Positions 27,932 to 44,276 of a DNA stretch of 64,000 bases are shown piece by piece (positions within the stretch are counted from its first letter, which is position 1; each line of letters starts with the position of its first letter). Under the pieces are notes generated by a model, which made no database searches, had not been told where the DNA came from, and saw nothing but the letters and a program-made list of their open reading frames with translations. The translations under genes were made by a program, and so were the position numbers. This DNA is from an uncultured delta proteobacterium (GTDB lineage: Bacteria > Desulfobacterota > RBG-13-43-22). The stretch is from assembly GCA_963790475.1 (NCBI GenBank), contig CAWBOS010000015.1, positions 384,001 to 448,000 of the forward strand. The letters are read 5' to 3'.

Positions 27932-28630
27932 TTGTCCTTAATTCTTTCAAATTCTCATGTTATCCTGAACAAAACCTCCGTCTCCTGGATAGGGATCGAG
28001 CCGCTTCAAGAAACTTGTCTGGGTATTGTGATTCTCGAGATAGGAGCCCTCTCCCACAGCGAAGGCCATTTATTCACCCCCCGTGAATTGGAAAAATTCT
28101 TAAAGATGGGACCGCGAAGACAGAGGAGTTTCACCGCCTCCAGAATATCCCTAAAGAATCTTTCCCGCCTCCTTGGTCTGGTCGAAGACAACAGGCTAGA
28201 CCGCACCATTGAAACTCTTGGCCCTGATGGGCAGAGGCCCTGTCTGGTAGACAGCGGGTTAAACTGCTCGGTCTCCCATAATTCCCGATTCGTTGTAGCG
28301 GTCGCCCACCAGCATCCGGTTGGTGTGGATATCGAGGGGGTTTCCGACAGGATCCAAAGGATTCAGCATATTTTTCTATCCCCCGGGGAAAAGCAATTGC
28401 TTTTACGATCAGGTCTTGATTTTCAACTCGCCGCGACCCGGGTCTGGTCAACCAAGGAGGCAGCGGCCAAGGCCTTGGGACTCCATCTTTTTCAGGCTGT
28501 CCGTGAGGTGAAGGTAGTCAAAATTAAAAAAGAAGAAAGTTCAATAAGGGTCCAAGAAAAAACTTACCTGGCCAGGTATAGCCAGGGAGATGGCCAGGTG
28601 ATCGCTCTGGTCACCTGTGATGACCTTTGA
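27932..28630 (+). CDS. 4'-phosphopantetheinyl transferase (Sfp-type)
   Basis: SVSHN, VGVDIE, WSTKEAAAKALG; start uncertain. Confidence 0.82.
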   Translation: MSLILSNSHVILNKTSVSWIGIEPLQETCLGIVILEIGALSHSEGHLFTPRELEKFLKMGPRRQRSFTASRISLKNLSRLLGLVEDNRLDRTIETLGPDGQRPCLVDSGLNCSVSHNSRFVVAVAHQHPVGVDIEGVSDRIQRIQHIFLSPGEKQLLLRSGLDFQLAATRVWSTKEAAAKALGLHLFQAVREVKVVKIKKEESSIRVQEKTYLARYSQGDGQVIALVTCDDL

Positions 28631-28638
28631 GAATCGAC

Positions 28639-30381
28639 TCAGCCATTCGAATCAAAGGCTTGGGGGCTTGAAGGAAGAAAAGCTATGCCCCAGGAACCCG
28701 GACCCATGTGGGCCGCAGAGGTGAGAGAGAGGAGTTGCAAAGAGATTTCCGCCAGAGGAAACCGGCGCTGAATCTCCGGTTTGATCTCCTTTTCCAGCCA
28801 GTCACGATTGTCCGAGTATTCGAGAAGCAGGGTGGATTTCCGATCTTTGGGAAGCTCCTTTTCCAGAGACCGAAGGGCGAATTTCACCTGATCCTGGAGG
28901 CTTCTCACCACTCCCAACTTTCGCGCCCCATCCGGAAAGGGGCTGATAATCGGTTTGATGTTCAGTACATCCCCAAAGAAGGCCCCGGTCTTGGACATGC
29001 GTCCGCCGGCGGCCAGGAAATGCAACTTGTCCAGGAAGATGTATTCCTGCACCTGTTGAATAGCGTTTTTGGCAAAAGCGACAACTTCCTCAGGGTCATT
29101 GACCACCAGGGCCATTTCAGCTGCGGCTTTGGCGACCAGTCCGAGTTTCCCCGAGGCCACCCCCGTATCAATCACCGTCATCCGGTCTTCGGGGTCATTC
29201 TCGGACTTCCATTTCGTGACCGCCTCATAATTCCCGGTATAAAAGGAGCCTACACAAAGATAAAGGACCCGGTTGTGGACTTTCATGACCTTATGATAGC
29301 ATTCCCTCCGCTCCGCGTCCGAGGCCTGGCTTGTGGAAACCTTAGCACCGCCCCTCATGGCCATAAAGAGCTGGGATGAATCCACATAGGTTTCAGGGAG
29401 GCAGAGAAGATCCATGGTGATGTAACTATTAAGGAGCGTGATTCCCAGGTCTTGGGCCAGGTCCCGGGTTAGGGAACCGGCGGCATCGGTCATGATGTGG
29501 ATGCACTGGTCCTTCCGGGGTTCAATGAACCGCAAGGTCTGTTGGGATAGATCGTCCTCGGACCAGCTGACGATGGACCCCAGGGCGGCCAGTTCCTGTC
29601 TGGCCCTTTCGCGATCTGAGGCGTGGAGATGTATTTTTAGCCAATCCCCTCCGGGCAGGGCCACCAATGATTCACCCACCTCCGACATTTGCTTCATTAC
29701 CTCTTGGTCCTCCCCTTCAACCTTGAGCACCACATCCAGACAGTAGCCCTGGTAGGGCCGTTCCTGCCAGGTGGAAGAAAAATCGACGGCATCCTTCAGT
29801 TCGTCAATGAAAAGGGAGTGCTCTACCGGCCGGCCGGCCAGGGTATTGAGTAAGGGATCGAGGAAAACCAGCATGCCCAGGGCCCCGGCATCAACCACCC
29901 CGGCTTCCTTAAGTTCGGGCAATTGTTCGGTGGTGGCTCTTACTGTCTCTTCCAAATCGGAAACGACCCCTCTCACCCAGACGCCTGAATCTTCAGGAGG
30001 GGTTTTCTTCAAGGAGGTCACCAGGGTGTCAAAAAGAGAGAGCATGGTCCCCGGTTGAGGATGGGAAACAGCTTGGTAGGCCATATCACGGCCAGTCTCG
30101 GCTGCCGCGCCCAGGGAACCAAGGTCGTTAGTTTGGAGAAAACCGGCCAGGAATCGAGCGGCGATGTTTCCGGAATTGCCTCTGGCCGAAAGCAGGATTT
30201 CATGGATTATCAGATCAGGAGAAGAGGGATTATTCCGTAAGGGGCCCAGGGTGATTACCATATTACGACCCGTATCACCATCGGGCACTGGGTAGACATT
30301 GATCCGGTCCAGGGTATCAGCCCAGGCCACAATCTTTTCATAGCCGGCAGCCAGGGCCTTCATTAGAAAATTATCCGACAT
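28639..30381 (-). CDS. DAK2 (FakA-like) - DegV (FakB-like) fusion, putative fatty acid kinase
   Basis: INVYPVPDGDTGRNM, ARGNSGNI, GVVDAGALG, KIHLHA (FakA-like), then IMTDAAG..VSTSQAS..GGRMSK..AHMGPG (DegV). Confidence 0.88.
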   Translation of the reverse strand: MSDNFLMKALAAGYEKIVAWADTLDRINVYPVPDGDTGRNMVITLGPLRNNPSSPDLIIHEILLSARGNSGNIAARFLAGFLQTNDLGSLGAAAETGRDMAYQAVSHPQPGTMLSLFDTLVTSLKKTPPEDSGVWVRGVVSDLEETVRATTEQLPELKEAGVVDAGALGMLVFLDPLLNTLAGRPVEHSLFIDELKDAVDFSSTWQERPYQGYCLDVVLKVEGEDQEVMKQMSEVGESLVALPGGDWLKIHLHASDRERARQELAALGSIVSWSEDDLSQQTLRFIEPRKDQCIHIMTDAAGSLTRDLAQDLGITLLNSYITMDLLCLPETYVDSSQLFMAMRGGAKVSTSQASDAERRECYHKVMKVHNRVLYLCVGSFYTGNYEAVTKWKSENDPEDRMTVIDTGVASGKLGLVAKAAAEMALVVNDPEEVVAFAKNAIQQVQEYIFLDKLHFLAAGGRMSKTGAFFGDVLNIKPIISPFPDGARKLGVVRSLQDQVKFALRSLEKELPKDRKSTLLLEYSDNRDWLEKEIKPEIQRRFPLAEISLQLLSLTSAAHMGPGSWGIAFLPSSPQAFDSNG

Positions 30382-30391
30382 GATCAACTCG

Positions 30392-31333
30392 TTAACTCCT
30401 GTCTCCTCCGGAATTCGATATCGAAAGGCGGGAAGCGGCCTTTCCTGTACCTGCCGGCTCGGATTGAAAAAAAGGCTCAAAGATGTACCACTGAAAAGGA
30501 TATCGGCGTACCATCTCCTCCAGGGCTTCTGCGTAGCCCTGGGCGCTTTCCTGAAGGGCCTTGTCCCTTCCGGAACGGGAAGAGGTCTTCACCTGTCTGG
30601 GAGGGAGGACAATGACCTGGTGTCTTCCTCTTTTTATCCGAAAGGTAAAAAGAATGAAGAGAGGCGCTCCGGTGATCAGGGCCAGAAGATAGGGACCTGA
30701 GGCCAGGGCCACCTCCCGGCCAAAGAATGTTACCGGCAAAAGAGAGCGCTGTTCGGTCCAGACCAAATCCCCGGCTATGGAGACGAATCCCCCTTCCCGG
30801 ATAAACTTGATCGCCTCCAACCCGCCCCAGAGAGAATCTTTTTCTCCCATGGCCACCTGAATGGTGATTCCCCGCTCCTGGAGGGTCTCCCGCTGATCGC
30901 GGGCCACCAGCCTGGCCTCCTTTTCACCCATCATCAGTAAAAATTTAAGTCCATATTTTTGAAAGGCGCGGGCCGCAACCTCGTAACTGCCCAAATGGGA
31001 CATGAGGAGGATTCCACCGGTCCCTTTTTCATTGGCCTCTAATATCCCTTCCTTCCCTTGTGTAGTTGCGAGTTCCCCCTTCTTTCTCTCCACGTCGATC
31101 CGGTCGCCGAAGGTAGCTGCGAAGGAATGAAACTGACGCCAAGCGCAATAGAGATGATACCATCCCCGGCGATCAGGAAAGATGACCTGATAGAGTCGGA
31201 CACTATTTCTCCTCCTGGCGGGAAGAAAAAAGAAATATCCGGTGGACACCCACCAGGAAAAAAAACGGATGGGCCAGGAGCCCAGAAAAAAGAAACCCTG
31301 GGAAGCCTTCTTTATAAAGGAAGCCTTAGTCAT
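30392..31333 (-). CDS. LpxL/HtrB-like lipid acyltransferase
   Basis: LLMSHLGSYE (HxGxxE), IAGD, VTFFG..ASGP, YPFQWYIF. Confidence 0.85.
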   Translation of the reverse strand: MTKASFIKKASQGFFFLGSWPIRFFSWWVSTGYFFFLPARRRNSVRLYQVIFPDRRGWYHLYCAWRQFHSFAATFGDRIDVERKKGELATTQGKEGILEANEKGTGGILLMSHLGSYEVAARAFQKYGLKFLLMMGEKEARLVARDQRETLQERGITIQVAMGEKDSLWGGLEAIKFIREGGFVSIAGDLVWTEQRSLLPVTFFGREVALASGPYLLALITGAPLFILFTFRIKRGRHQVIVLPPRQVKTSSRSGRDKALQESAQGYAEALEEMVRRYPFQWYIFEPFFQSEPAGTGKAASRLSISNSGGDRS

Positions 31334-31339
31334 GCTCTC

Positions 31340-32979
31340 TTATTCGGCCTGGACCTCCTGCCTCAAGACCTTCTTCTGGATCTTCCCGGCCGGGTTCCTG
31401 GGGATCTCCCGGCGGAAAAGGATGGCCTTGGGAACCCGATAATCGGGCATGTTTTCTCGGCAGTATTTGAGAATCTCCTCTCGACTCCCTTTCAGGCCTT
31501 CTTTCAGAGAGATCACCGCTACAACGGCCTGGCCCTTTATCCGGTCAGGGATACCGATCACGGCAACATCCTTGATCTTGGGGTGCTTTTCCAGGACGGC
31601 CTCGATTTGGCTGGGGTAGATGTTGAAACCACTGGAGAGGATCAGATCGTCTTTGCGGTCCACCAGGTAAAAATAGCCTTCTTCGTCCATTCGGGCCAGG
31701 TCCTTGGTGTAAAGCCAACCGTCTCGCAAAGCCGACAAGGTGAGTTCCGGATTATTCCAATAGCCTTGCATGATCTGAGGCCCTTTCACCACCATTTCGC
31801 CGATCTCACCCGGGGCACATTCTTCCCGACCGGTTTCCATGTCCATGATTCGGACATCCGTGTCCGGTGAGGGAAGGCCGATGGAGCCTCGGGGTCCTCC
31901 GTGGGGGGAAGGTAAGAAATGGGTGGCCCCGGAGGCCTCGGAAAGCCCGTAGGCCTCGATAATCTTCCGGCCGGTGAGTTCTTCGTAACGTTCATGAGCC
32001 CAGGCAGGCAGGGGTGCCCCTCCGCTGGTGGCCACCTGAACGGAAGAGAGTTGGGGTCCGGCAATCTCGGCCGGAAGGGACAGGATGGCCGCCCACAGGC
32101 TGGGTACGACCGGGAAGGAAATCGGCCGGTAAGTCTCATTGATTTTCAGCAAGGAAAGGATATCCAGGGGGTCGATCCTGGGCAGGAGGACCATCCGGTA
32201 TCCCTTTAGTACGGAAACAAGAAGACAAGCCGATAACCCGAAAACATGGAAAAAAGGAATCACGCACAGAGCCGCGGCATTGCCGGCATTCTGTTCTCCC
32301 ATCCAGGCATCGGACTGGAGCACACTGGCAATAAGATTGGCGTGGGTCAGGACAGCGGCCTTGGGGATCCCGGTGGAACCGCTTGTAAACTGCAAGCACG
32401 GCCACATCTTCGGGAGAGACCTGAACCGGCGGTTCTTCCGCACTTGAGGCCGAGGCGGTTACTTCCTGGAATATTTGAGGTTGCGGGTCTCCTGCTTCCA
32501 AAGGAATTTTCTTTTCCAACCCGAATATGGAGTGAAGGATAACGGTTTTCACCCCGGTTTTTTTAATCACCTGATAGATATTCTGGGCAAACAGATCCAG
32601 GGTGATAACCATCCCGGCCCCGGAGTCGTTGAGGCAGCGGGCCAGTTCTTCTCCCTGAATCCCCACACTTATATTGACCACAATGGCCCCGAGTTTCATA
32701 ACGGCAAAAAAGGCGATCACATAGGTCGGGGAGTTAACTAGAATAAAAGCGATCCGGTCTCCCTTTTTCAACCCCCTGCTCCCGAAGGGCCTGGGCGAAC
32801 CGGTTTACTCTCTCATTCAGTTCCCGGTAGGTCAGGTGGGTTTCATTAAAGGAGAGGGCGGTATAGTCCGGGTGGTTGGTCGCCGTGTCCGTCAGGAAAC
32901 GTTGGAGGGGAATCGGCGGATAAGTTAGGGAATGGGGAACATGTCCCTCATAGTGCTTGAGCCACGGTTTTTCTTTCAT
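31340..32979 (-). CDS. Long-chain fatty acid-CoA/ACP ligase (AMP-binding), split by two single-base indels
   Basis: Three overlapping ORFs join into KPWLKHY..KGDRIA..VAVLQFTSGSTGIPK..EAYGLSE..YLVDRKDD..GKIQK. Indels at ~32770 (G5 run) and ~32394. Confidence 0.88.
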
Positions 32980-33049
32980 CGACTCTCCAATATTTTGAAA
33001 CCTGTTTTCCGAATAACAATGAAAAAGTTCAAAAACGCCCGTGGCCCTT

Positions 33050-33322
33050 CTACCCATTTTTCCGGTTGGCCTCAATATAGTCCGCCAGGGAGGAAAGGGT
33101 AATAAAGACTTTCTCGCCCAGATCCTTACTGAAGATCTCCACCCCGTAATCTCTTTCTACCAGGACTACCAGGACCAAAAGGTCCACGGAAGCCAGACCG
33201 AGGCCTCCATCAAAGAAAGGGGTGTCGTCTGCCAATTCATTGGGGTCCATATCTTCGAGTTGGAGTTCTTCTACGATTTTTTCTTTTAATTCTTGCAGGA
33301 GTTGTTTCATAGTTGATCCCAT
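33050..33322 (-). CDS. Acyl carrier protein with atypical GLASVD attachment motif
   Basis: LKEKIVEELQLEDMDPNELADDTPFFDGGLGLASVDLLVLVVLVERDYGV, the ACP pattern seen in non-canonical FAS II clusters. Confidence 0.82.
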   Translation of the reverse strand: MGSTMKQLLQELKEKIVEELQLEDMDPNELADDTPFFDGGLGLASVDLLVLVVLVERDYGVEIFSKDLGEKVFITLSSLADYIEANRKNG

Positions 33323-33515
33323 ATTGAGCGCCCTCTATCCGGAAGTTTTTTGCTTTCTGCTTCAAATTCCCCATCATTTTCCTATCCCCTTTTATTAGAG
33401 AAATAGAGGACTTTAAGATTTTAGGCGTAGAGATTGCCGGGGAAAAAACGCCTTTGTTTTTCTAACATAACAAGGGTTAATGTCAATATCAAATAAATGT
33501 TTCCCATAATTTTCC

Positions 33516-33545
33516 TTGACCCCGGTTCCTTTTTCCATTTATAAT
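33516..33545 (+). promoter_or_regulatory. Promoter of the acp-rSAM-rSAM-fabF-fabF-TE-DH unit (divergent region)
   Basis: TTGACC-N18-TATAAT; an opposite-strand TTGACA at 33486-33481 could serve the leftward unit. Confidence 0.5.
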
Positions 33546-33661
33546 TATTAGAATAATTTAAAAGGTCCTGATAAAGATGATTTTCTTTGAGAAACTAATT
33601 TTCCTGCACTCTTTTCTTAAAGAACCCCGAAGAACAAATACTTAAGTCAACAAGGAGGATA

Positions 33662-33937
33662 ATGATGCCTAAAGGCCATGATATTAAAGGCATTATTGAA
33701 AAGGTAGCCCAAATCATCATTTCTGAACTCAAGCTGGAAGACGTTACGCTTGAGACGTTCAATCCTGATTTGGATCTGATTGATGAACTGGGAATTGACA
33801 GTATGGATTTGGCTACTATCGCTTTGGTTTTGCAGGACGAATACAAGATTATGATTGACGAAGACGATTATCCCAAATTAAAGACCATTCGACTGATCGC
33901 GGAATATGTCGGGGAAAAAATTTCAGCCCGGGGTTAA
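33662..33937 (+). CDS. Acyl carrier protein
   Basis: DLIDELGIDSMDLATIALVLQDEY with canonical DS motif; RBS AGGAGG. Confidence 0.9.
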   Translation: MMPKGHDIKGIIEKVAQIIISELKLEDVTLETFNPDLDLIDELGIDSMDLATIALVLQDEYKIMIDEDDYPKLKTIRLIAEYVGEKISARG

Positions 33938-33996
33938 TATTCCTGCAGCTCAATCCCGGTATTGGGAACAATCAACTTAAGAGGAACACATTGGCT

Positions 33997-35067
33997 ATGA
34001 CCATCAACCATCAGGCATCCCTGGAACCGGAAAAACCGAAGTTTTCCGATCTCCTCGCCCATCCGGAAGTCAGGCAACGCTGGGAAAAAGTCAAGAAATA
34101 TTTTTTTCTGCGGGAATCCACCTACGACATGAGCAACCGTTGCAACCTCCGCTGCGACGGCTGTTATTATTTTGAAGGCGAAAAGCAGTTTGCCGTGGAA
34201 AATACCCAAGTGGAAGCTTGGCGCGAGCTTATGCAATCCGAAAAAAAACGGGGCATCACCTATGTGGTTCTGGCCGGGGCCGAGCCTTCGCTCGTCCCCG
34301 AGCTGTTGGAGGTTTGTTTTCAAGAACTGCCGCTGGGCAGCATAGCGACCAACGGTTTTAAAAAAATACCGGAATCGGTGGGTTATAAAATCCATATTTC
34401 CGTTTGGGGGAATGATGAAACCAGCCTCCGAATACGGAAGGCCAAAGATCTCTTAAAAAAACAAATTGAAAATTATCGCAATGATCCACGGGCCGTTTTT
34501 GTCTATACCTTTACCCGGGAAAATATGGAAGAAGTCTCTGAAGTGGCCAAGCGGCTCGTTTCCGAAAACTGTAAACTGACTTTTAATGTCTTTTCTTCTC
34601 CGTTAGGATATAATGGAGCGTTGCGCCACGATAGGGAGTCGTTGGCGAGGGCTCGAACCTCCATGATTGAGCTCTTGGAGAAATATCCAAAACATGTCCT
34701 TTTTTCGGTTTATAATGCCGTGGCTCATACCCATCAAGGCAGTTTGCACGATCTTTTCTCCTGCTTGTATCCCCGGCAAAACCCTTCCCAGGATCTTGGC
34801 CTGGGGCGGTCTTTTCGCCAATACCGGACCGACTTGAAATGGGATCGATCAGCGGCCTGCTGTGTGCCAGACACCGACTGCGCCGACTGCCGACATTACG
34901 CATCGGGTTCGGCTATTGTCACCGCTCGCCTTTTTCGCCATGCCGATAAGTTGGAAACCTTTCAGGCCTGGTTGGATTACGTGGACACCTATTTGGCGGT
35001 TTGGGTGATGGGGTATCCCAAAGGGGAGAATCTTTGCTCGACTCCGGTCAACCCCCCACTGGCTTAA
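33997..35067 (+). CDS. Radical SAM protein 1 (no B12 domain; C-terminal Cys cluster)
   Basis: CNLRCDGC (CxxxCxxC), LAGAEP, IATNG; C-terminal C..CCVPDTDCADC. Confidence 0.9.
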   Translation: MTINHQASLEPEKPKFSDLLAHPEVRQRWEKVKKYFFLRESTYDMSNRCNLRCDGCYYFEGEKQFAVENTQVEAWRELMQSEKKRGITYVVLAGAEPSLVPELLEVCFQELPLGSIATNGFKKIPESVGYKIHISVWGNDETSLRIRKAKDLLKKQIENYRNDPRAVFVYTFTRENMEEVSEVAKRLVSENCKLTFNVFSSPLGYNGALRHDRESLARARTSMIELLEKYPKHVLFSVYNAVAHTHQGSLHDLFSCLYPRQNPSQDLGLGRSFRQYRTDLKWDRSAACCVPDTDCADCRHYASGSAIVTARLFRHADKLETFQAWLDYVDTYLAVWVMGYPKGENLCSTPVNPPLA

Positions 35068-35116: not shown

Positions 35117-36115
35117 ATGATCACCGTTAGTTCATTACTGGATCAACCTTGGTACGAACGCTACAAACGGATATCCAATCTGAATATCCGCAGTTCCATT
35201 TATGACGTCACCAACCAGTGCAATTTACGCTGCAAGGGTTGTTTCTTCTTTTCTTCCAACGAACACCAGGCGGCCCGGGAAGAAATGGATCTCCAAAAGT
35301 GGGAAGCGTTTATCGACCGGGAAAAAGAACGAGGGGTCAATCTGGCCATATTGATCGGCGGCGAGCCGACTCTTTACCTGGATCGGGTCGAGGCCTTTTA
35401 CCGGCGTCTGCCGTCCTATTGCGCGACCAACGGGTTAATTAAAATTCCGCGGGACCGCTTTCCCGACATGATGGTCGGGATCTCGCTCTGGGGCAGTCCC
35501 GAAGACGAAAAAGTCCTCCGGGGACGGGACACCTTTGCCATCTCCAGTAAGAGTTATGCCGGCGATCCTTTTACCTATTATTTGTTCACCATCACCCCGC
35601 GGCAGGTGGGAAAGATCGAGCCGGTCATTCAAAGAATTGCGGATGTGGGATTGAAGGTCCATCTTCAGCTTTTGTCAAATGACGAACATGTGGACGGCTT
35701 TTCCTGGCAGGAGAACGAACTGAAAGACTTGTGTAGTGAAATGGATGCCATGCTGGACCGGTATCCCCAGACGGTCATCTCCAGTAAATATTACCATCAG
35801 ATCATCACCACCGGAATCATGATGGGCCGTCCCTTCGGCTGGAACGAATGTCCATCGGTTACCGAGTCCTTAGATGACCGGGACCCCCAGCCCCGCCGCC
35901 TGATCCATTTTATCCGCTGGGCTTCCGATTTAAAGACGGTCCATCGCTGTTGTACTTCGGCCACACGGGATTGCTCCACCTGCAAGGACGGCGCGGCCCA
36001 CATGAGCTGGGCTATGGTCAATAAGCGGGAGCATATCCGGACAACCGAAGATTTACAAAACTGGATCGAAGTCTATGAAATGTTTGCCAAGCTCTATCGC
36101 TTTATCCCCTGGTAA
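35117..36115 (+). CDS. Radical SAM protein 2 (paralog of protein 1)
   Basis: CNLRCKGC, IGGEP, ATNG; C-terminal C..CCTSATRDCSTC. Confidence 0.9.
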   Translation: MITVSSLLDQPWYERYKRISNLNIRSSIYDVTNQCNLRCKGCFFFSSNEHQAAREEMDLQKWEAFIDREKERGVNLAILIGGEPTLYLDRVEAFYRRLPSYCATNGLIKIPRDRFPDMMVGISLWGSPEDEKVLRGRDTFAISSKSYAGDPFTYYLFTITPRQVGKIEPVIQRIADVGLKVHLQLLSNDEHVDGFSWQENELKDLCSEMDAMLDRYPQTVISSKYYHQIITTGIMMGRPFGWNECPSVTESLDDRDPQPRRLIHFIRWASDLKTVHRCCTSATRDCSTCKDGAAHMSWAMVNKREHIRTTEDLQNWIEVYEMFAKLYRFIPW

Positions 36116-36264: not shown

Positions 36265-37515
36265 ATGGTTTCAAGAAAAGCAGTCATTTTAGGGTATGAT
36301 GCTGTTTCTCCCTTAGGCACGGATTGGGAAACCCAATGGGAACGTGCCGTTCGCGGGGATTCGGGCATAGGACCTTTAACCCGGTTCCCGTTGAGCGCCG
36401 AATTTCCGGTTCGGGTAGCCGGTGAAGTTCCCCCTTTCGACCCCCGTCCCTTTTCTTTTTTACAGCCTCGGGAGATGGCCCATTGGACCTCGCCCATTTT
36501 TAAATACGCCCTTTTGGTTGTGCACCGCGCGCTGTTAAAAAGTGGGCTGGTGATTACGCCCGAGATCGCCCCCCGCGTGGCGGTCACTTTCAGCACCGCC
36601 GTCGGCGGATTGGATGCGGTTTTAGAGGCCGATCGTCTGATGGTATCTCAACAAAAGATGCCTCCTCCCTTTACCAATCCCAATTCCTGTATCAACATGG
36701 TCGGCGGCCGGGTTTCTGTATTCACCGGGGCCAGCGGGCCTATCTGTTCAACCATAACGGCCTGCGCCACCGGAGTCACTTCCTTGATCATGGGTGAGCT
36801 GCTCCTGCAGCGCGGCCTGGCCGATGTAGTCATCGGCGGCGCCGTCGATTTTCCATTGGTCGAACCGATCGTAGCCGGATTTGCCACTATGAATGGGGCC
36901 TATCGTCCCAAGGAAGGTCAACCTCTGGTGCCGCCGGAAAAAACCAGCCGGCCTTTTTCAGCCAACCGCAGGGGGTTTGTGGTTTCCGAAGGGGCCGGCT
37001 GCATTATTTTGACCACGGCGGATTTTGCCAAAGCCCACGGGCTCCAGGCGCCTATTGAACTGGCCGGCTATGGAATGACCTCAGATGCCACCCACTTTGT
37101 TGCCCCCAATCTGGAAACGGTTCAAAGATGCATCAGTCAGGCTATTGCCGACGCGGGCCTGCAGCCTTCGGATATCCATGCCGTGAATGCCCACGCCACT
37201 TCCACAAAAGTGGGAGACAAAGTGGAAGCCGATGCGCTGCATAATATCTTCGGCACAAATCTCCCCCCGGTAACGGCCAATAAATCGCAATTGGGTCATG
37301 CCATGGGGGCCTCCAGCGCCATCGAGGCCATTTTGGCCATGGATGGCTTGCTTAAAGAGACCTTGCTTCCCACGATTAATTATCTCCCTGATCCGGAGAT
37401 TGAGTTGGATTGCGTGGCTGAGGGGGCCAGAAAATTCAAAGGGGAATTTGTGCTGAAAAATGCCCTGGGGTTTGGCGGATGCAATTCCTGTCTGATTCTA
37501 CGCCGGCTAATTTAG
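36265..37515 (+). CDS. fabF: Beta-ketoacyl-ACP synthase II-like (KS1)
   Basis: TACATG (Cys), NAHATST (His), KSQLGHAMGA (His), GFGGCN. Confidence 0.9.
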   Translation: MVSRKAVILGYDAVSPLGTDWETQWERAVRGDSGIGPLTRFPLSAEFPVRVAGEVPPFDPRPFSFLQPREMAHWTSPIFKYALLVVHRALLKSGLVITPEIAPRVAVTFSTAVGGLDAVLEADRLMVSQQKMPPPFTNPNSCINMVGGRVSVFTGASGPICSTITACATGVTSLIMGELLLQRGLADVVIGGAVDFPLVEPIVAGFATMNGAYRPKEGQPLVPPEKTSRPFSANRRGFVVSEGAGCIILTTADFAKAHGLQAPIELAGYGMTSDATHFVAPNLETVQRCISQAIADAGLQPSDIHAVNAHATSTKVGDKVEADALHNIFGTNLPPVTANKSQLGHAMGASSAIEAILAMDGLLKETLLPTINYLPDPEIELDCVAEGARKFKGEFVLKNALGFGGCNSCLILRRLI

Positions 37516-37581: not shown

Positions 37582-38846
37582 ATGAAGGCACCTAAAAACA
37601 GAAAAGTATTTGTCGTCGGTTACGGGACGGCTACCCCCCTGGGGAGTACCTTTGAAAAGACCTGGAAGCGCGCCGTTAAAGGGGAAGCCGGTTTCCGGAA
37701 AGTGACCCGCTGTCAGGTGGAATCCGCTTGCAACATTGTCGGTGAGATCCCGGACTGGAATCCTCTGGATCTTGATTTTATCGATGCCAAAGAAATGTAC
37801 AACTGGAATGCCGCTTTTGTTATCCTGACTATGGCCGTCTGCCGGGAGGCCCTGGAAAATGCCGGGATTACCATGGATGACCGGATTGCCCCGCGCATGG
37901 CCTGTCTGATCGGTTCGGCCCTGAATGGGCCGGATGCCTTCCGAGTAGCGATGCAGGATTTGGAACACCGCGGCCCGCTCCGGGTAAGCCCTTATTTACT
38001 GCCCAATTTGTGCGCCAATGTCCCGGCCGGGAAAGCCGGTATGCTTCTGAAATTTACCGGTCCTATCTTTTCCCCCAGGGGGCCTGCGCCTCGGGCAACC
38101 ATGCCATCGGCCTGGGGGCCAGAATGATCCGGGATGGGGATTGCGATTTCGTACTGGCCGGCGGGGCCGATGCCCCCATCCTGCCGGAATTGATTCACGG
38201 CTTTGCCAATATGAATGCCACCATCAAGGTCCATCCCGAGGATCGCGCTTATTCCGATCCGGCTCAGGCTTCCCGTCCTTTCAGTTTCGACCGCAAAGGA
38301 TTTGTCCTTTCGGAAGGGGCAGGAGTAGTCGTCCTGGCGGCGGAAGAGCTGATAAAGGCCTATGGTCTTAAGGCCAGGGCTGAGGTTTTAGGGGTTGGAT
38401 GGACTTCGGATGCTTATCATTACACCAGCCCCAACCCCACCACCATTATCCGGGCCATCAGGGAAACCATTGAGGATGCCGGTCTGAAACCGGCGGACAT
38501 TGAATACATCAATGCCCATGGAACGTCCACACCCAAGGGCGACCGGACGGAAGTAAAATGTCTGCGAGAAGTTTTTGGGAAAACAATAGAACGTATTCCG
38601 GTATCTTCAAACAAGTCCCAGTTGGGACATACCCTGGGCGCGACCGCGGCCATTGAGGCCGCTTTGACCATTGAGGCCATGGGTAGGGGGCTTATTTTGC
38701 CGACCATTAATCATCTTCCCGATCCCGATTTTCCCGATATCGATGTCGTGGCCAATGTGGTCCGCAAAAAAAATTATGAAATTGCGCTTTCCAATGCCTT
38801 CGGTTTTGGCGGAACGAACTGCTGTATCATTTTTAGGGGGGTGTAA
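37582..38846 (+). CDS. fabF: Beta-ketoacyl-ACP synthase II-like (KS2), one frameshift in a C-run
   Basis: ORFs 37582-38127 and 38010-38846 join if the C5 run at 38072-38076 is C6: GPIFSPQGACASG, NAHGTST, KSQLGHTLGA, FGFGGTN. Confidence 0.88.
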
Positions 38847-38848
38847 AT

Positions 38849-39328
38849 ATGCGGCCCAAACCATTTCGGCCTGAGGTATTCAATAACGATCAAAAATTCG
38901 TCCGCGATCGCTCGACGGGATTGATCTGGCATCGTTCCACCTATAGAACCTTATATGCCGACACGGACCGCTCGGAAGTGGTCTATCATGCCAACTACCT
39001 GCGTTTTTTCGAATTCGGGCGAACCTCCTTGATGCGCGATTTTGGTTACCCCTACAAGGAAATAGAAGCCAGCGGTTTTGTCTATCCTATCATTGATTTG
39101 AAGATCGGTTTTTATTCCCCGTTGTATTATGATGATTTGATGTATATCCATACCCGGCCGACCCACCTGGAGCGGGTGCGTTTGCAGTTCGACTACCTGA
39201 TCACCCAGGCTGAGAACGGTAGGATCGTCTGCGTCGGTTTTACCAAACATTGCGCCTTGAATGCCAAGAGCCTTCCCGTGGCCGTCGATCCCAAAACGGT
39301 TGAGCTCTGGAAATCGTTCCCCGGTTAG
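38849..39328 (+). CDS. Hotdog-fold acyl-CoA/ACP thioesterase (YbgC/4HBT family)
   Basis: YADTDRSEVVYHANYLRFFEFGR. Confidence 0.9.
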   Translation: MRPKPFRPEVFNNDQKFVRDRSTGLIWHRSTYRTLYADTDRSEVVYHANYLRFFEFGRTSLMRDFGYPYKEIEASGFVYPIIDLKIGFYSPLYYDDLMYIHTRPTHLERVRLQFDYLITQAENGRIVCVGFTKHCALNAKSLPVAVDPKTVELWKSFPG

Positions 39329-39336: not shown

Positions 39337-40179
39337 ATGCGTTACCCTTTGGAAATCGAAGTCAGTGATTATCTCTATGATCATCACTTCGAAGGCCGGT
39401 TTGTGTTACCAGCCGTTGAAGCACTGATCATCCTGGCCAAGGCCGTTCAAGACCATTTTCCCAACGTGGATGTGTGTTGTTTGAATAAGGCCCGCTTCCC
39501 CCGCTTTTTAGTTATTCCCCCGGGAACACACCGTCTCCCGGTCTTAGTAGAAGTAGAGGAAACACCAGACGGGGCTATTTCCGCTCTGCTGATGACCTCG
39601 GTCAGATCAAAAACCGGAGGCATAGGCCGCAACTTGGAGCATGCCCGGGTAGAATTTTCCTTGGCCGATTCTCCTCCAAATTCTTTCCCTCCCTTAGCTG
39701 ACGCAGATAATCCTGAAGAATCGGGCATCATAGTACCGGCTGAATCGATTTACCCTGGATTGATCCCTTTCGGGAGGGCCTTTCAAAATATCATCAGCCC
39801 GGTCTCTCTTTGGCCCGGAGGGGCAGCGGCTTCTCTCTCAGGCGCGGACCAGGGAACAGAGGATGATTGGCTCGGCTCCCCCTTCCCCTTTGATGCCGCT
39901 ATTCAAGTGGCTTGTGTCTGGGGGCAACGTTTTACCGAGTATATTCTCTTTCCGGTTGGTTTTGAAAAAAGGATCATTCACCAAAAAACAAAAAAAGGCG
40001 GAATCTATCTTGGCCGTATCACGCCAGTGGCCATTGGACAGAACCCATTTTTATTTGATGCCCTGATTTTTGATTCTCAAGGGACGGTCTGTGAAGAAAT
40101 CCGAAGTATTCAAATGCAGGATGTATCCCAGGGCCGCCTCCGCCCGCCATTATGGATCAAGGAGTTGCGACCGGCTTGA
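39337..40179 (+). CDS. Stand-alone PKS-type (double hotdog) dehydratase
   Basis: YLYDHHFEGRFVLPAV (HxxxGxxxxP), FGRAFQNI, PFPFDAAIQ (DxxxQ). Confidence 0.78.
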   Translation: MRYPLEIEVSDYLYDHHFEGRFVLPAVEALIILAKAVQDHFPNVDVCCLNKARFPRFLVIPPGTHRLPVLVEVEETPDGAISALLMTSVRSKTGGIGRNLEHARVEFSLADSPPNSFPPLADADNPEESGIIVPAESIYPGLIPFGRAFQNIISPVSLWPGGAAASLSGADQGTEDDWLGSPFPFDAAIQVACVWGQRFTEYILFPVGFEKRIIHQKTKKGGIYLGRITPVAIGQNPFLFDALIFDSQGTVCEEIRSIQMQDVSQGRLRPPLWIKELRPA

Positions 40180-40549: not shown

Positions 40550-41809
40550 TTACATCCCCACCCGGCCGAACTTCCGGTCGGCCTTGGTCTGCCATCGGCG
40601 GAAGGTGCCGTCGGCCATTTCCTTGGCGATAACTCTTTTGAAAAGTTCGAACATCCGGTAGGATTGTGGCTTTTCGCGGTAGAAGGTTTCCCAGGACTCG
40701 TCGTATAATTCCTGAAGACGCTCCACACTCATGTGTTTCGGCTGGAAGATGACTTTGTCGCAGGTATAGTCATTCCAATCGTAGGACAGAATCCGCCCTT
40801 CCTGTTGCAGGTCGGTGAAGGCCCGCGTGTGGGGAAAGGGGGTCAGGACGGTGAATTCCGCCAGATCCAGTTCGACCTCCAGGAGAAAATCGAAGAGGCG
40901 GCGGATATAATCTTCGGTGTGGTGGTCGAGACCGAGGAGGATGGTCCCCTCGACCCCGATCCCAAAATCATGGTAGTGTTTGATCCGGTTGCGGATTAAG
41001 TCCGAGGTATCGAAAACCGCCTGATAGACATACCAGGCCCCGGCCTGGGCCGCCAGATCCAGCACCTCTTCATCATCCTCGATAGGGTGGGAGCACCACT
41101 TTTTTTTCAGAGGAATCATCTCCCGGAATAGTTGCTTTTCCCAGGCCTTGTCCTGGGCCAAGGAATTGTCCACAATGAAAAGACGATTATTTTCTATGGC
41201 GGCCAGTTCCTCCACAACCTTGTCCATGGGGCGGGGCCGGAACTGACGTCCCCCCAGAAAACTGACACAGCAGGGATAGCAGTTAAATCGGCATCCCCGC
41301 GAGGCGTGGAAAAGATCGACCATCTGGACGCCCTTGTAGTTGTAAAGCTCCCGTTTAAGGAGGTCCCGTCGGGCCGTGCCGACCGAGGCGATGGGTGGAA
41401 AATCGGTCAGGTAGTCGTAGACGTTTTGAAGCCGGTTATTCTGGAAATCATCCAAAACCTGCTCCATACGTCCTTCCGCTTCCCCCAGGAAGACCGCGTC
41501 GGCATGAAGGGAAGTCTCTTCGGCATGGAGCATAGTGGCAATGCCGCCGCAGATGACCGGCAGACCTCTCCTCCGGTATTCATCGGCAATTTCCCAGCCC
41601 CTTTTCACCTGGCTGGTCAGCATCATGGAGATCCCCACCAAGTCCGCTTGGTCATCGAAATCAATGGTCTCCAGATTTTCATCGACGAAATCTATTTCCA
41701 CATCTTGGGGCAGGGCGGCGGCGAAGACAACGGGGCCATGCGGGGGGAGATGGAACTCGGTCTGGCCTTTGAGCTTTTTCCACTTGGGATAGATGAGTTT
41801 AAATTTCAT
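40550..41809 (-). CDS. Cobalamin-binding radical SAM protein
   Basis: B12-binding domain (PPHGP..DLVGIS..VICGG), SRGCRFNCYPC, LTPFPHT. Confidence 0.9.
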   Translation of the reverse strand: MKFKLIYPKWKKLKGQTEFHLPPHGPVVFAAALPQDVEIDFVDENLETIDFDDQADLVGISMMLTSQVKRGWEIADEYRRRGLPVICGGIATMLHAEETSLHADAVFLGEAEGRMEQVLDDFQNNRLQNVYDYLTDFPPIASVGTARRDLLKRELYNYKGVQMVDLFHASRGCRFNCYPCCVSFLGGRQFRPRPMDKVVEELAAIENNRLFIVDNSLAQDKAWEKQLFREMIPLKKKWCSHPIEDDEEVLDLAAQAGAWYVYQAVFDTSDLIRNRIKHYHDFGIGVEGTILLGLDHHTEDYIRRLFDFLLEVELDLAEFTVLTPFPHTRAFTDLQQEGRILSYDWNDYTCDKVIFQPKHMSVERLQELYDESWETFYREKPQSYRMFELFKRVIAKEMADGTFRRWQTKADRKFGRVGM

Positions 41810-41955: not shown

Positions 41956-42178
41956 GTCATTCCGTCGGAGAGACTGTGTCACGATTACATTTATGTCATT
42001 CCGTGCAAGCAAAGCGCGACACGGAATCCAGTTTTTCCGATAAGTTCTGGATACCGGCTTTCGCCGGTATGACGACTTTGATGGCGCTTTAAGTAATTAC
42101 GAAACCGCCTCGGAAGCCTGAGTCCAGTATTCTAAAGTGGAAAAAATTATCCTGGACCCCGGTTTTCTCCGGGGTGAC
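41956..42178. mobile_element. Nested palindromic elements: REP/RPE-like element interrupted by a 142-bp MITE that contains another REP-like element
   Basis: Outer GTCATTCCGTC-GGA|...|GGA-AGCCTGAGTCCAG...CTGGACCCCGGTTTTCTCCGGGGTGAC. Inner 41970-42111 has imperfect TIRs GAGACTGTGTCACGATTAC / GTAATTACGAAACCGCCTC and a GGA duplication. Innermost GTCATTCCGTG..ACGGAATCCAG..CTGGATACCGGCTTTCGCCGGTATGAC. Confidence 0.7.
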
Positions 42179-42194
42179 GACTATTATCGATTCT

Positions 42195-42791
42195 TCAATT
42201 CTGAGAAGTTGGAATTATTTTTTCGGATTTCTTTTTATAAGCCGCAATATTGGATTTATGGGCCCAAAAGATCAGAGCCATAGTCAAAGCCACCGCTATA
42301 ATCACCGGCCAATCCCGGGCATAACGGATCATGGTCCCCACTCCCAAAAAAGCGATCATAAAAAAAGACCCGACAAAGGGTATACGAAACACCCCGTAAG
42401 CCAGAACCCAGGCCAGGCAGGAAATCCCGGCCACGACCGGAGACAAAAAAGCAGTGAACCCCAGATAACCGGCTACGCCTTTACCCCCTCGGAACCCATG
42501 AAACAGCGGTTTTTGATTCCCGATCACCAGGACCAGCCCCAAGACAGGTACCAATGGAGCAGGCAAAAACCAAACCCCGACTTGGGCGATGACTACGGCA
42601 CGACCCAGGTCCAGCAAGAGGACCACCGCCCCCCAGAATTTGCCGAGCTGCCTGGAGACGTTAGTAGTCCCGGCATTGCCGCTGAAACGGTCCCTCGGGT
42701 CACCCTGGCCAAGTATTTTAAACAGGATAATGGAAAAATTGATCGAGGCGGCAATATAAGTTGACAGCCCCAATAACAATAAGGTCCCCAA
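42195..42791 (-). CDS. plsY: PlsY-family acyl-phosphate:glycerol-3-phosphate acyltransferase (variant)
   Basis: SGNAGTTNVSR (motif 1), FRGGKGVA (motif 2), AHKSNI (motif 3); TTG start abuts the upstream stop. Confidence 0.85.
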   Translation of the reverse strand: MGTLLLLGLSTYIAASINFSIILFKILGQGDPRDRFSGNAGTTNVSRQLGKFWGAVVLLLDLGRAVVIAQVGVWFLPAPLVPVLGLVLVIGNQKPLFHGFRGGKGVAGYLGFTAFLSPVVAGISCLAWVLAYGVFRIPFVGSFFMIAFLGVGTMIRYARDWPVIIAVALTMALIFWAHKSNIAAYKKKSEKIIPTSQN

Positions 42792-44276
42792 CTAATCCTC
42801 CGCTGCCCCTGGTTCCTTTCCAGGGTCTGCAATCCGACTGTCGGTCCTGACAAAACGGAGGAACCCTCCGAGATTGGACAGGAACCTCTTCCAACTGTCG
42901 GGGGAGCGCCAGATCATGGTCAGGTAGCCGAGGAGCATTTTGGGCCGCATAAAGTGTTTCCGGTAGAACCTGATGAAAAGTTTTTCCAGAAGCTCGGCCG
43001 TCATCCCCCGGGGAACGAAGAGGAAATGCATACAGTCCATTTTTTCCCAGTCTTCTTCAAAGGTCCCCAGCTCGTGGGCCTTTTCATAGAGGGGCGTACC
43101 CGGGAAGGGGGTAAATTTGGAGACATTGATGTCATCAATGGGCAAAGAAAAGACATAATCCATGCTTTTTTGGATACTCGATTCGGTTTCACCGGGCAAA
43201 CCTACCATGAGCAGTCCCTTGACCCGGATACCGACTTTATGGATCAGATGTATTTTTTCGGCCAGCATCTCCAGGTTGGGGTTTTTGCGGTGCTGGGCCA
43301 GAAGGTCCTCATCCCCGGTTTCCACACCAAGACTGATCATCCAGCATCCGGCCTCTTTCATCATCCGGGCCAGAGCGAGATCAATATGCTCGGCCCGGAC
43401 GGCACAGTTAAAGGTCATCCCCAGCGGCTTATCAATCATCATCCGGGCGAAGGCCTCGACCCTTTTACGATTAAAAGTGAACTGGTCATCATAGAAGTTG
43501 ATGTGCCGGATATGAAAACGATCGTTGAGATATTTCAGATGTTCATAAAGGTAGTCGGCGGAATTGTACCGGAAACTGCTCCCGAACACGGAACGGTCAC
43601 AGTAACTGCAGGCATAGGGGCATCCCCGGCTGGATATGCAGCTGGTATTGGGGACCGTCGGATAATTGAAAATGGGCAGCTTGTAGGTTTGAGGATAACC
43701 GTCCAATTTTTCATAGGCGGGAAAAGGCAGACTGTCGAGATCGATGCCTTTGGCCCGGTAGCCGATAAAATGCGGGATCCCTTCCGGGCCGCGCCAGACT
43801 ACGCCGGGAATCGGGGACGCCGCATTAATTTCTCCATTGCAGGACACAAGCTCGGCCAGGGTCTGTTCGCCCTCACCGACCACGGCAAAATCAACCTCCG
43901 GAAAATCGGCCAGGCTCTTGGTTTTCAGGGCCGAGACATGAGGGCCCCCAAAAACCGTTTGTATGCCCGGCAAATCCTTTTTTGCCATCCTGGCGATGCG
44001 GACTCCATCCAGAAAGCTCGACGTGGTGCAACTGAAGCCGATGAAAGCCGGCTTCTTTTCGATCAGATAATCCTTGATGAAACCATCGGAAAAAGGCTTG
44101 GCAAAATAATCGACGATATCAGCTTGAATATTCTCCTTTTCCAGATAGGCTGCCATGCTGGCCAGGCCCAGGGGGGGCATGATATTGGCTATACGCGAAA
44201 CATCCTGCCCCGACCTTTCCACCTTGTAACCCAGGGGATGGACGAGGAGGATTCTATTCTTCTGTAAAACGGGCAT
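42792..44276 (-). CDS. Cobalamin-binding radical SAM protein (BchE/class B methylase-like)
   Basis: MPPLGLASMAAYL..FIGFS..VFGGPHVS, SSRGCPYACSYC, FYDDQF, LGVETG, FTPFPGTPLY. Confidence 0.92.
   Translation of the reverse strand: MPVLQKNRILLVHPLGYKVERSGQDVSRIANIMPPLGLASMAAYLEKENIQADIVDYFAKPFSDGFIKDYLIEKKPAFIGFSCTTSSFLDGVRIARMAKKDLPGIQTVFGGPHVSALKTKSLADFPEVDFAVVGEGEQTLAELVSCNGEINAASPIPGVVWRGPEGIPHFIGYRAKGIDLDSLPFPAYEKLDGYPQTYKLPIFNYPTVPNTSCISSRGCPYACSYCDRSVFGSSFRYNSADYLYEHLKYLNDRFHIRHINFYDDQFTFNRKRVEAFARMMIDKPLGMTFNCAVRAEHIDLALARMMKEAGCWMISLGVETGDEDLLAQHRKNPNLEMLAEKIHLIHKVGIRVKGLLMVGLPGETESSIQKSMDYVFSLPIDDINVSKFTPFPGTPLYEKAHELGTFEEDWEKMDCMHFLFVPRGMTAELLEKLFIRFYRKHFMRPKMLLGYLTMIWRSPDSWKRFLSNLGGFLRFVRTDSRIADPGKEPGAAED

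Follow-up and report, generated by a model that had tools for sequence, protein, structure and literature searches.

The 64,000-nucleotide stretch of DNA analysed here, referred to as the window, belongs to a genome assembled from an uncultured delta proteobacterium (NCBI GenBank assembly GCA_963790475.1, contig CAWBOS010000015.1, positions 384,001 to 448,000 of the forward strand). Between positions 27932 and 44276 it contains a gene cluster in which genes for type II fatty acid synthesis (FAS II), acyl carrier proteins (ACPs) and acyl transfer are mixed with the genes of four radical S-adenosylmethionine (SAM) enzymes. The unit under selection in this cluster is an operon of seven genes, ACP2-rSAM1-rSAM2-KS1-KS2-TE-DH, which occupies 6.5 kb of the plus strand and encodes a carrier protein, two radical SAM paralogues, two ketosynthases (KS), a thioesterase (TE) and a dehydratase (DH). 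Genes were assigned with a listing of open reading frames (ORFs) and with Pfam and NCBIfam scans of the 19 ORFs of the cluster and 36 other ORFs of the window. All 14 gene types that had been named in an earlier interpretation of the nucleotide sequence (in the following, the sequence-only reading) are present in their places. They are given below, together with two dehydrogenase genes that lie just outside the cluster.

25901..26653, minus strand: SDR_a, a generic short-chain dehydrogenase (SDR; Pfam adh_short_C2, 217.8 bits)
26913..27728, plus strand: SDR_b, a generic short-chain dehydrogenase (Pfam); 204 bp separate it from the PPTase gene, which follows in the same direction
27932..28630, plus strand: Sfp-type 4'-phosphopantetheinyl transferase (PPTase; Pfam ACPS, 57.9 bits, and 4PPT_N, 24.3 bits)
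28639..30480, minus strand: FakA-FakB fusion with Dak2, FakA-like_M and DegV domains (Pfam, PDB sequence matches)
30392..31333, minus strand: protein of the LpxL/lysophospholipid-acyltransferase family (Pfam Lip_A_acyltrans, 52.4 bits; all NCBIfam models below cut-off)
31340..33075, minus strand: FadD-like AMP-forming acyl ligase, read in three frames (Pfam AMP-binding and C-terminal domain)
33050..33322, minus strand: ACP1, a PRK09184-type carrier protein (NF006617, 73.1 bits, cut-off 70)
33323..33661, no strand: divergent intergenic region with the best promoter-like site (promoter scan)
33662..33937, plus strand: ACP2, the carrier protein of the core operon (Pfam PP-binding, 38.2 bits)
33991..35067, plus strand: rSAM1, a radical SAM enzyme (Pfam Radical_SAM; CxxxCxxC)
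35117..36115, plus strand: rSAM2, a radical SAM paralogue of rSAM1 (Pfam Radical_SAM; CxxxCxxC)
36265..37515, plus strand: KS1, a FabF-like ketosynthase (Pfam, NCBIfam; Cys-His-His intact)
37582..38846, plus strand: KS2, a second FabF-like ketosynthase, read in two frames (Pfam)
38849..39328, plus strand: TE, a YbgC/4HBT hotdog thioesterase (TIGR00051, 82.5 bits, cut-off 68.7)
39337..40179, plus strand: DH, a free-standing double-hotdog dehydratase of the polyketide synthase (PKS) type (Pfam PS-DH, 28 bits)
40550..41809, minus strand: B12a, a B12-binding radical SAM protein of no named family (Pfam B12-binding, 33.2 bits; CxxxCxxC)
42195..42791, minus strand: PlsY-type acyl-phosphate:glycerol-3-phosphate acyltransferase (Pfam G3P_acyltransf, 114.6 bits)
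42792..44276, minus strand: B12b, an HpnJ/BchE-like B12-binding radical SAM protein (NCBIfam, below cut-offs)

ACP1, the ligase, the LpxL-family acyltransferase and the FakA-FakB fusion form, in this order, a minus-strand unit. The PPTase gene points towards the 3' end of the fusion gene, which, as judged by eye, probably starts at ATG 30381. In a second minus-strand group, B12b abuts the PlsY gene, which is followed after a gap of 386 bp by B12a. This gap (41810-42194) contains short repeated GC-rich hairpin-like elements, which may resemble repetitive extragenic palindromes (REP), and, at 41951 and 41990, the two copies of a 15-nt direct repeat. An ORF of 129 residues at 40243-40632, which overlaps the 3' end of B12a and matches no family in Pfam or NCBIfam, we take to be spurious. 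In the divergent intergenic region the hexamers TTGACC-18-TATAAT at 33516-33545 (plus strand) score 11 of 12 matches and are the top promoter-like site of the scanned stretch. They are weak evidence for a promoter because the number of promoter-like sites in that stretch, 21, is not above that in shuffled sequences (16.4 +/- 3.8). The terminator scan likewise did not exceed its shuffles.

Related loci were sought with an alignment of seven rSAM2 sequences in one genome per species. At least 553 relatives were confirmed, a number that may include more distant subfamilies, and the best 80 loci were kept. The rSAM2 proteins of these 80 are all 77-92% identical to that of the window; 65 loci are of the Desulfobacterota type, 14 belong to Spirochaetota or Leptospirales and one to a bin of Gammaproteobacteria, and the core is carried by genome bins of Syntrophales, Desulfobacterales and Spirochaetota. 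The window proteins, together with seven proteins from two of the loci (L014 and L076), served as tblastn queries against the 80 loci at a threshold of at least 30% identity over at least half of the query. Complete 10-kb flanks were available for 37 loci, to which the frequencies out of 37 refer. rSAM1 is present in 37/37, ACP2 in 36/37, KS1 in 35/37, the two pieces in which KS2 is read in 34/37 and 33/37, TE in 32/37 and DH in 31/37. The order and the strand of these genes are constant in the 37 loci, and comparison with the closest relative, L001, yielded dN/dS ratios of 0.03-0.19 for all core genes, indicative of purifying selection. rSAM2 is the most conserved gene of the cluster, with a mean column identity of 86% across two phyla and a dN/dS of 0.055; the corresponding identity of rSAM1 is 78% (28 sequences). 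Since the order of the core is kept in other genomes, the arrangement is far beyond chance. The sequence-only reading had staked its case on the genes recurring together elsewhere, and those of the core do so, in order, in 31-37 of the 37 loci. The best explanation of these data is that a system for assembling and modifying acyl chains is widespread among anaerobic bacteria and that the window contains a lineage-specific version of it. In the literature no paper was found on the ACP2-rSAM1-rSAM2-KS-KS-TE-DH core, on its extreme conservation or on a variant that lacks a TIGR04072-type enzyme (see below), searches for a described function of the gene set gave nothing relevant, and others returned only general papers on "ladderane-type" clusters.

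The same comparison divides what the sequence-only reading had regarded as one system of 16 kb. The core genes co-occur in order, but the genes around them in the window are seldom found with them elsewhere. The FakA-FakB fusion occurs in 0/37 loci and in 0/80 overall. The ligase is likewise absent from the 37 and appears among the 80 only at the edge of L002, where 31 residues are 84% identical. The LpxL-family acyltransferase was detected in 2/37 and 4/80 loci (60-61% identity in L013 and L019) and the PPTase in 6/37, with a position after the core in 8/80. B12a is present in 3/37 loci and near the core in 7/80, with 71-86% identity at a threshold of at least 50%; B12b-like genes are present in 5/37 and near the core in 7/80, with 43-46% identity at a threshold of at least 40%. 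A PlsY gene was found in 23/37 loci; it follows DH in 34/80, where its product is 40-59% identical to the PlsY of the window. L001 has the bare core, without the accessory genes of the window within 10 kb.

In most relatives, a different set of genes precedes the core, and PlsY comes after it. The upstream module consists of an ACP1-like gene, ketosynthase-chain length factor (KS-CLF) genes, a B12 radical SAM gene of the TIGR04072 type, a gene resembling polysaccharide deacetylases and a FabZ-like gene. FabZ-like genes occur in 34/37 loci, deacetylase-like genes in 32/37, KS-CLF fusions in 16/37 and FabA in 8/37. The TIGR04072-type gene lies directly upstream of the core in 29/37, and the ACP1-like gene, the product of which is 39-51% identical to ACP1, is located upstream of the core beside KS-CLF or TIGR04072 genes in 30/37. 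tblastn with the proteins of L014 and L076 revealed no TIGR04072-type, KS-CLF, deacetylase, FabA or FabZ-like gene in the 64-kb window. The window thus lacks the upstream module but has kept ACP1, which is located beside the FadD-like ligase. In a tree of rSAM1 and rSAM2, constructed by a quick method from the window and 27 of the 80 loci, L001, L002 and the window form a group (support 100) whose neighbour is a Smithella clade (support 99). The deep branches of this tree are not resolved, and it leaves undecided whether Spirochaetota acquired the cluster by transfer. The upstream module is not in L001, and the ligase-ACP1 arrangement is common to the window and L002; since both loci group with the window, loss or replacement of the module is a trait of this small lineage.

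Some of the related loci show gene arrangements of their own. In L030, of Spirochaetota, the deacetylase is fused to a SAM methyltransferase with weak likeness to BioC and UbiG (6514-7983), and a PKS-type DH is fused to a PPTase (18237-19739). In L076, which belongs to a bin of Desulfosudis oleivorans, the gene after PlsY encodes an HpnR-like B12 radical SAM protein (249 bits, below cut-off) and the next one a BtrH/DarH-like acyltransferase (15485-17913); these two genes also occur as a pair in L064.

These frequencies raise the question whether only the 6.5-kb core constitutes the system, in which case the ligase, ACP1, the acyltransferase, the fusion, the PPTase, PlsY, B12a and B12b would be genes of lipid metabolism, ordinary or unrelated, that are nearby by coincidence and do not handle the product of the core. 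Apart from the edge of L002, no other locus has the fusion or the ligase, the remaining accessory genes are infrequent, the nearest relative carries the core alone, and the accessory genes of the window are in separate transcription units of opposite strand. Arguing against this explanation is that each of the eight neighbouring genes has to do with lipids or carrier proteins, which is improbable for random neighbours. Moreover, the same kinds of genes recur at other loci, among them the ACP1-like gene, PlsY, the PPTase (fused to DH in L030) and orthologues of B12a, at the frequencies given above. We regard a system restricted to the core as rather unlikely.

The ligase and KS2 genes of the window are interrupted by frameshifts. 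The reading frame of the ligase changes twice, near 32765 and 32390, and its three pieces cover positions 2-47, 44-167 and 166-384 of the AMP-binding profile plus the C-terminal domain. In KS2, which is read in two frames, the reading shifts by one base near 38076, immediately ahead of the active-site cysteine; the window has five C residues there and L001 six. If all three shifts were real, ligase and KS2 would be dead in this genome, which would weigh against the scheme preferred below. A decaying cluster, broken or reduced in this organism, would be compatible with any of the other explanations considered here; it is suggested by three frameshifts within 6 kb of the cluster, one of them just before a catalytic residue, and by the confinement of frameshifts in the window to four genes (ligase, KS2, hcp and a transposase), with dnaK, a gene for an ATPase with tetratricopeptide repeats (TPR) and others intact. 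However, at least two of the three shifts are in or beside homopolymer runs, the pieces of both genes cover their family profiles fully without in-frame stops, and KS2 shares 96% identity with its intact counterpart in L001, the dN/dS ratios being 0.028 on one side of the shift and 0.051 on the other. The neighbouring hcp gene (hybrid-cluster protein, Prismane family; 44539-46168) has about five frame changes, yet each of its segments is conserved, which looks like indel errors of the assembly rather than a pseudogene. Because the pieces keep their coverage without stops, KS2 is conserved relative to L001 and hcp displays frame changes of the same kind, we think that the shifts in ligase and KS2 are assembly errors rather than decay; real shifts, which would have to be very recent, we consider unlikely.

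The two ketosynthases of the core have retained the catalytic cysteine and both histidine motifs. Among the orthologues, the cysteine motif is present in 67/67 KS1 and 53/54 KS2 sequences, and the histidine motifs are mostly kept. In L001 the two proteins are 38% identical to each other. Both score below the FabF equivalog TIGR03150 (cut-off 494 bits), KS1 with 327 bits and the KS2 pieces with 89 and 283 bits, which favours the sequence-only reading. The PDB sequence nearest to KS1 is FabF of Bacillus subtilis (4ls5, E 7e-79). KS1 also matches the chains 9s5h_B (E 2e-49) and 9s5h_C (E 5e-39), which are listed as 3-oxoacyl-ACP synthases and which we suspect to be the anammox pair described below.

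The dehydratases of PKS are double hotdogs with a catalytic histidine in the motif HxxxGxxxxP and an aspartate in the second hotdog. The structural model of DH (pLDDT 90) resembles DH domains of trans-AT PKS (5j6o, 7zmf) with Foldseek template modelling (TM) scores of 0.70-0.74. His16, Pro25 and Asp186 are invariant in all 47 aligned sequences, those of the window and of 46 loci; L001 was dropped from the alignment since a stop codon falls in the matched stretch. As far as can be judged from model and alignment, DH is an active-looking double-hotdog dehydratase of the PKS type.

The claim of the sequence-only reading that the cluster is self-contained was not borne out, because FabD, FabZ and an enoyl reductase were not found in the cluster with Pfam and NCBIfam, and tblastn with a FabZ-like protein was negative. 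Nor does the window contain a housekeeping FAS II set: fabD and fabZ are not in it, the SDRs are below the FabG cut-offs and the ketosynthases below that of the FabF equivalog. The only FabG-like reductases nearby are SDR_a and SDR_b, just outside the start of the cluster. SDR_a scores about 205 bits against a FabG cut-off of 297. It is a possible ketoreductase whose membership in the cluster is uncertain, and a relative occurs in 2/80 loci. SDR_b is likewise a possible ketoreductase; in 13/80 loci an SDR with 32-38% identity to it is located divergently upstream of the cluster, a similarity that may be generic among SDRs. A FabK-like gene is found at 53358-54329, 9 kb from the cluster.

The FakA-FakB fusion, a predicted fatty acid kinase in a single chain, matches FakA structures with residues 43-317 (7w7h_A, 8vip) and DegV/FakB structures with residues 327-602 (1pzx, 2dt8). 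Fak forms the acyl phosphate used by PlsY, and the enzymes of the LpxL family take acyl-ACP donors. In Pfam, the Dak2 (61.8 bits), FakA-like_M (31.1 bits), DegV (136.2 bits) and G3P_acyltransf domains are above the gathering scores. The equivalogs are not reached (FakA 96 of 975 bits, FakB1 46 of 350, PlsY TIGR00023 91 of 137), and the proteins are therefore predicted to be divergent members of their families. As in the FakA/FakB-PlsY route of Gram-positive bacteria, the window encodes the kinase and middle domains, a DegV/FakB domain and a protein of the PlsY family. Unlike that route, FakA and FakB are fused, with DegV in place of the C-terminal domain of FakA, and the genes are part of a specialised cluster in a genome of the Desulfobacterota type. 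Of the two B12 radical SAM proteins, B12a reaches no more than 53 bits with its best NCBIfam model, which is below the cut-off, and B12b scores 195.7 bits against HpnJ (cut-off 577.6).

The minus-strand unit invites comparison with aryl polyene (APE) biosynthesis. The genes of ligase, ACP1 and LpxL-family acyltransferase are neighbours of the same orientation, an operon logic of carrier protein, ligase and acyltransferase that resembles ApeE/F, ApeH and ApeD of the apeA-R cluster of E. coli CFT073, in whose gene table two ACPs, an acyl-ACP synthetase, a lysophospholipid acyltransferase, a thioesterase, additional ketosynthases and dehydratases are also listed (PMC8253772). The product of the cluster might accordingly be a specialised lipid, either APE-like or polyunsaturated in another way, with a role as pigment or protectant for instance, rather than a bulk membrane fatty acid. 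In such a pathway the ligase would load an aromatic or unusual starter on ACP1 in the manner of ApeH, and the acyltransferase would anchor the product to a lipid of the envelope in the manner of ApeD. The presence of a dehydratase in a cluster in which no enoyl reductase was found is consistent with this possibility, as are the KS-CLF fusions and an ApeI-like dehydratase in relatives. ACP1 passes NF006617, the PRK09184 model, which we take to be that of APE-type carrier proteins; its loading by the ligase remains putative. Several observations speak against an APE. KS1 and KS2 are closest to FabF and score 174 and 185 bits against the APE-type model PRK09185 (cut-off 407). tblastn with the KS-CLF fusion of L076 revealed no additional locus in the window that could encode a KS-CLF heterodimer of the ApeO/ApeC type, only the two active FabF-like ketosynthases. 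Genes for Lol-like or RND (resistance-nodulation-division) export are absent from the Pfam matches of the 19 cluster and 36 other ORFs, and methyltransferase and glycosyltransferase genes were not found in the window. Conversely, the four radical SAM genes and PlsY of the window do not appear in the gene table of the E. coli cluster (PMC8253772). Linkage to PlsY points to ordinary glycerolipid assembly, and an APE-like product is in our view improbable.

A second comparison concerns the clusters proposed to direct the synthesis of ladderanes in anammox bacteria. "Ladderane-type" clusters are reported from D. psychrophila and from Geobacter (PMC2649909). 

Ladderanes were not found in D. psychrophila despite its similar cluster (PMC2649909). 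Clusters of FAS and radical SAM genes that resemble those for ladderanes have been flagged in non-anammox bacteria since 2009, and the literature assigns no product to them (PMC2649909; PMC9902471; PMC13459092); the antiSMASH "ladderane" clusters of Desulfobacterota and many other phyla are described as being without assigned function (PMC9902471). Like these clusters, that of the window comes from a strict anaerobe and combines carrier proteins and FAS II ketosynthases with radical SAM enzymes, B12-binding ones among them. The likeness is closer in its relatives, where the core directly follows a TIGR04072-type gene. In the two loci in which the upstream B12 radical SAM proteins were scanned, L030 and L014, they score 408 and 397 bits and thus pass the TIGR04072 cut-off of 360 bits; they are accompanied by a deacetylase, an ACP and KS-CLF fusions. 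For this reason the cluster family to which the core belongs is of the "ladderane-type" kind. In the kuste3335-3352 region of Kuenenia stuttgartiensis, the published gene descriptions include two adjacent radical SAM genes (kuste3342/kuste3343), ACPs, copies of FabF and a deacetylase-like gene (PMC2649909, PMC4790861). By its arrangement the adjacent pair kuste3342/kuste3343 is like rSAM1 and rSAM2 (PMC4790861).

The label "ladderane-type", which the sequence-only reading had attached to the cluster, suits the relatives (29/37) but not this copy. B12a and B12b score only 45.9 and 95.5 bits against TIGR04072, tblastn with a true member of that family located no other B12 radical SAM gene in the 64 kb, and neither a KS-CLF nor a deacetylase gene is present. 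FabZ/FabA and phytoene-desaturase-like proteins of the amine-oxidase family had no family match among the ORFs of the cluster and the other scanned ORFs of the window. SAM methyltransferase and MMPL-like membrane protein genes of ladderane-type clusters are missing as well. In Cluster I of anammox bacteria (kuste3603-3608 in K. stuttgartiensis), one partner of a KS/CLF-like pair lacks the Cys-His-His triad (preprint 10.64898/2026.05.19.726425). Neither a ketosynthase without the triad nor a FabZ or a phytoene-desaturase-like flavoprotein was found among the window ORFs scanned, and both ketosynthases of the window are of the active type. Synthesis of a ladderane or a ladderane precursor by this cluster would be suggested by the TIGR04072-type genes that adjoin the core in relatives and by the gene kinds shared with kuste3335-3352. 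Against it stand the genes missing from the window and the D. psychrophila result. In addition, none of the hits listed with a named source in three protein searches with the radical SAM sequences was from an anammox organism, which is weak evidence because most hits are nameless. We consider a ladderane product extremely improbable.

What distinguishes the core is its pair of radical SAM enzymes. rSAM1 and rSAM2 are paralogues (27% identity, E 1e-33). The motif CxxxCxxC is present in all four radical SAM proteins of the cluster, in rSAM1 at the N-terminus; against a Pfam Radical_SAM cut-off of 29.5 bits, rSAM1 scores 31.3, rSAM2 34.4, B12b 85.5 and B12a 21.7 bits. Both paralogues contain an additional cysteine group in the C-terminal part, CC...DC..C in rSAM1 and CC-x6-C-x2-C (C278, C279, C286, C289) in rSAM2, the latter presumably differing from the canonical SPASM motif. 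A search of a library of 1.84 billion representative proteins with rSAM2 gave 619 matches at E <=0.001, among which the full-length orthologues form one cluster at 50% identity and the next full-length relatives are 30-38% identical. Close relatives are labelled Smithella, Syntrophaceae and Deltaproteobacteria, and in the protein Atlas the homologue P0121 led only to unnamed "radical SAM" clusters of Thermodesulfobacteriota. Profile searches revealed two distant subfamilies among entries named "radical SAM protein", one in Streptomyces, Sorangium and Tistrella and the other in alphaproteobacteria and Comamonas.

No characterised relative of the pair was found by NCBIfam, PDB sequence or structure matching. 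The pair comes near no NCBIfam cut-off (best PapB, Tes, ScmE and NirJ, 18-34 bits against cut-offs of 180-650), and its PDB sequence matches are marginal. The folds nearest to the rSAM2 model (pLDDT 93) are those of SkfB, CteB, anSME, BlsE, SuiB and DesII, with TM scores of about 0.5 and 13-18% identity. With these SPASM/twitch enzymes and with MoaA, which supply its best structural and weak sequence matches, rSAM2 has in common a radical SAM core followed by C-terminal cysteines, which possibly hold an extra Fe-S cluster. It differs from them by the low TM scores and identities, by NCBIfam scores far below the cut-offs and by its context, which is fatty acid synthesis, whereas theirs is peptides or sugars. 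The model thus places rSAM2 in a SPASM/twitch-like class with one extra cysteine group, a placement that concerns the class and not the reaction. Lipid-modifying radical SAM enzymes have been reviewed and comprise Tes, Mss, Gms, Grs, Gmm, Cds, HpnH/J/P/R, Jaw5 and the unsolved ladderane case; the outline and three sections of the review contain nothing like the rSAM1/rSAM2 pair (PMC13459092).

More distant relatives of rSAM2, with about 35% identity and belonging to the Streptomyces/Sorangium/Tistrella subfamily, were observed on plasmids of Burkholderia and Alteromonas. They are part of three-gene units (L081 7213-9610, L082 7156-9511) in which the radical SAM gene is flanked by the gene of a PaaA-like "phenylacetic acid catabolic protein" on one side and that of a hotdog thioesterase or a MaoC dehydratase on the other; the Alteromonas unit adjoins a Tn3 transposase. 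The location of these relatives beside thioesterase or dehydratase genes fits a family that acts on acyl thioesters.

A specific proposal for the pair is that rSAM1 and rSAM2 are a new kind of ACP-directed radical enzymes which alter the carbon skeleton while the chain is being elongated, for example by introducing a mid-chain branch, a ring or a cross-link. Syntrophales, Desulfobacterales and anaerobic Spirochaetota would then have the resulting membrane lipid in common, and the pair would represent the shared, non-anammox-specific half of the "ladderane-type" pathways. This proposal is doubtful, with a limited chance of being correct. If it holds, the window would demonstrate that this half operates on a simple ligase-loaded starter without a TIGR04072 enzyme, and the product would be a lipid that lipid surveys have yet to assign to any gene.

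That the cluster encodes a dedicated O2-independent pathway for acyl chains, equipped with carrier proteins of its own, as the sequence-only reading contended, is a reasonable interpretation, and installation of the chain in a membrane lipid is consistent with the PlsY genes that follow the core in other genomes, which point to a glycerolipid. The scheme that we tentatively prefer, with a chance somewhat short of even, is that an acyl chain is built, modified by radical chemistry and installed in a glycerolipid, so that the product would be a modified membrane glycerolipid and not a ladderane. Both carrier proteins would be activated by the PPTase. The ligase would load ACP1 with a free acid, which would serve as the starter and replace the one provided by the TIGR04072 module in other genomes; alternatively, the acid on ACP1 could be the donor for the LpxL-family acyltransferase. 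KS1 and KS2 would elongate the chain on ACP2 with malonyl units, DH would remove water, and the missing activities might be contributed by housekeeping FabD, FabG and enoyl reductase or by the neighbouring SDRs. rSAM1 and rSAM2, each with its one extra cysteine group, would act on the carrier-bound chain by C-C bond formation, desaturation or another C-H functionalisation. The acid would be freed by TE, converted to the acyl phosphate by the FakA-FakB fusion and transferred by PlsY to glycerol 3-phosphate. The LpxL-family acyltransferase would put an ACP-bound chain on a lipid acceptor, and B12a and B12b would modify the chain further, most likely by methylation.

Several points weigh against this scheme. 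The accessory genes are tied to the core mainly by their proximity, in view of their frequencies in the 80 loci and of the bare core of L001. The PlsY of the window may not be an orthologue of those at the other loci, given its low identity to them and its location on the opposite strand. The fold matches of the radical SAM pair are weak and indicate a class, not a reaction. The replacement of the starter is suggested by gene neighbourhood alone and, together with the roles of the B12 enzymes, is the weakest link of the scheme.

The analysis separates the seven-gene core, which is under very strong selection, from the variable parts of the cluster. A natural variant without the TIGR04072 enzyme narrows the question to the action of two small radical SAM enzymes on an ACP-bound chain. 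The cluster in the bin of Desulfosudis oleivorans, which we take to be a cultured species, offers a workable entry point. Should widespread anaerobes of sediments and digesters really contain the product as a membrane lipid, it could be a new biomarker and provide a handle on oxygen-independent lipid tailoring.

Outside the cluster, the window has a few further features. A region of low GC content (0.40) at 3814-6174 appears to be a small mobile or toxin-antitoxin island; it contains, as judged by eye, a HigA-like helix-turn-helix (HTH) gene (3814-4122), a minus-strand transposase gene that is broken up over several frames (about 4394-5375) and a toxin-antitoxin pair of the BrnT/BrnA kind (5609-5878 and 5878-6174). 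At 17585-21716, on the minus strand, a protein of 974 residues with AAA-ATPase, MarR-HTH and TPR regions is encoded, followed by an ORF of 410 residues without a Pfam or NCBIfam match. Close to the end of the window (63786-63923, minus strand), the catalytic domain of a group II intron was identified (Rfam RF00029, 50.7 bits, gathering score 40), and an ORF of the AraC family (63075-63914) overlaps it with its 5' portion.

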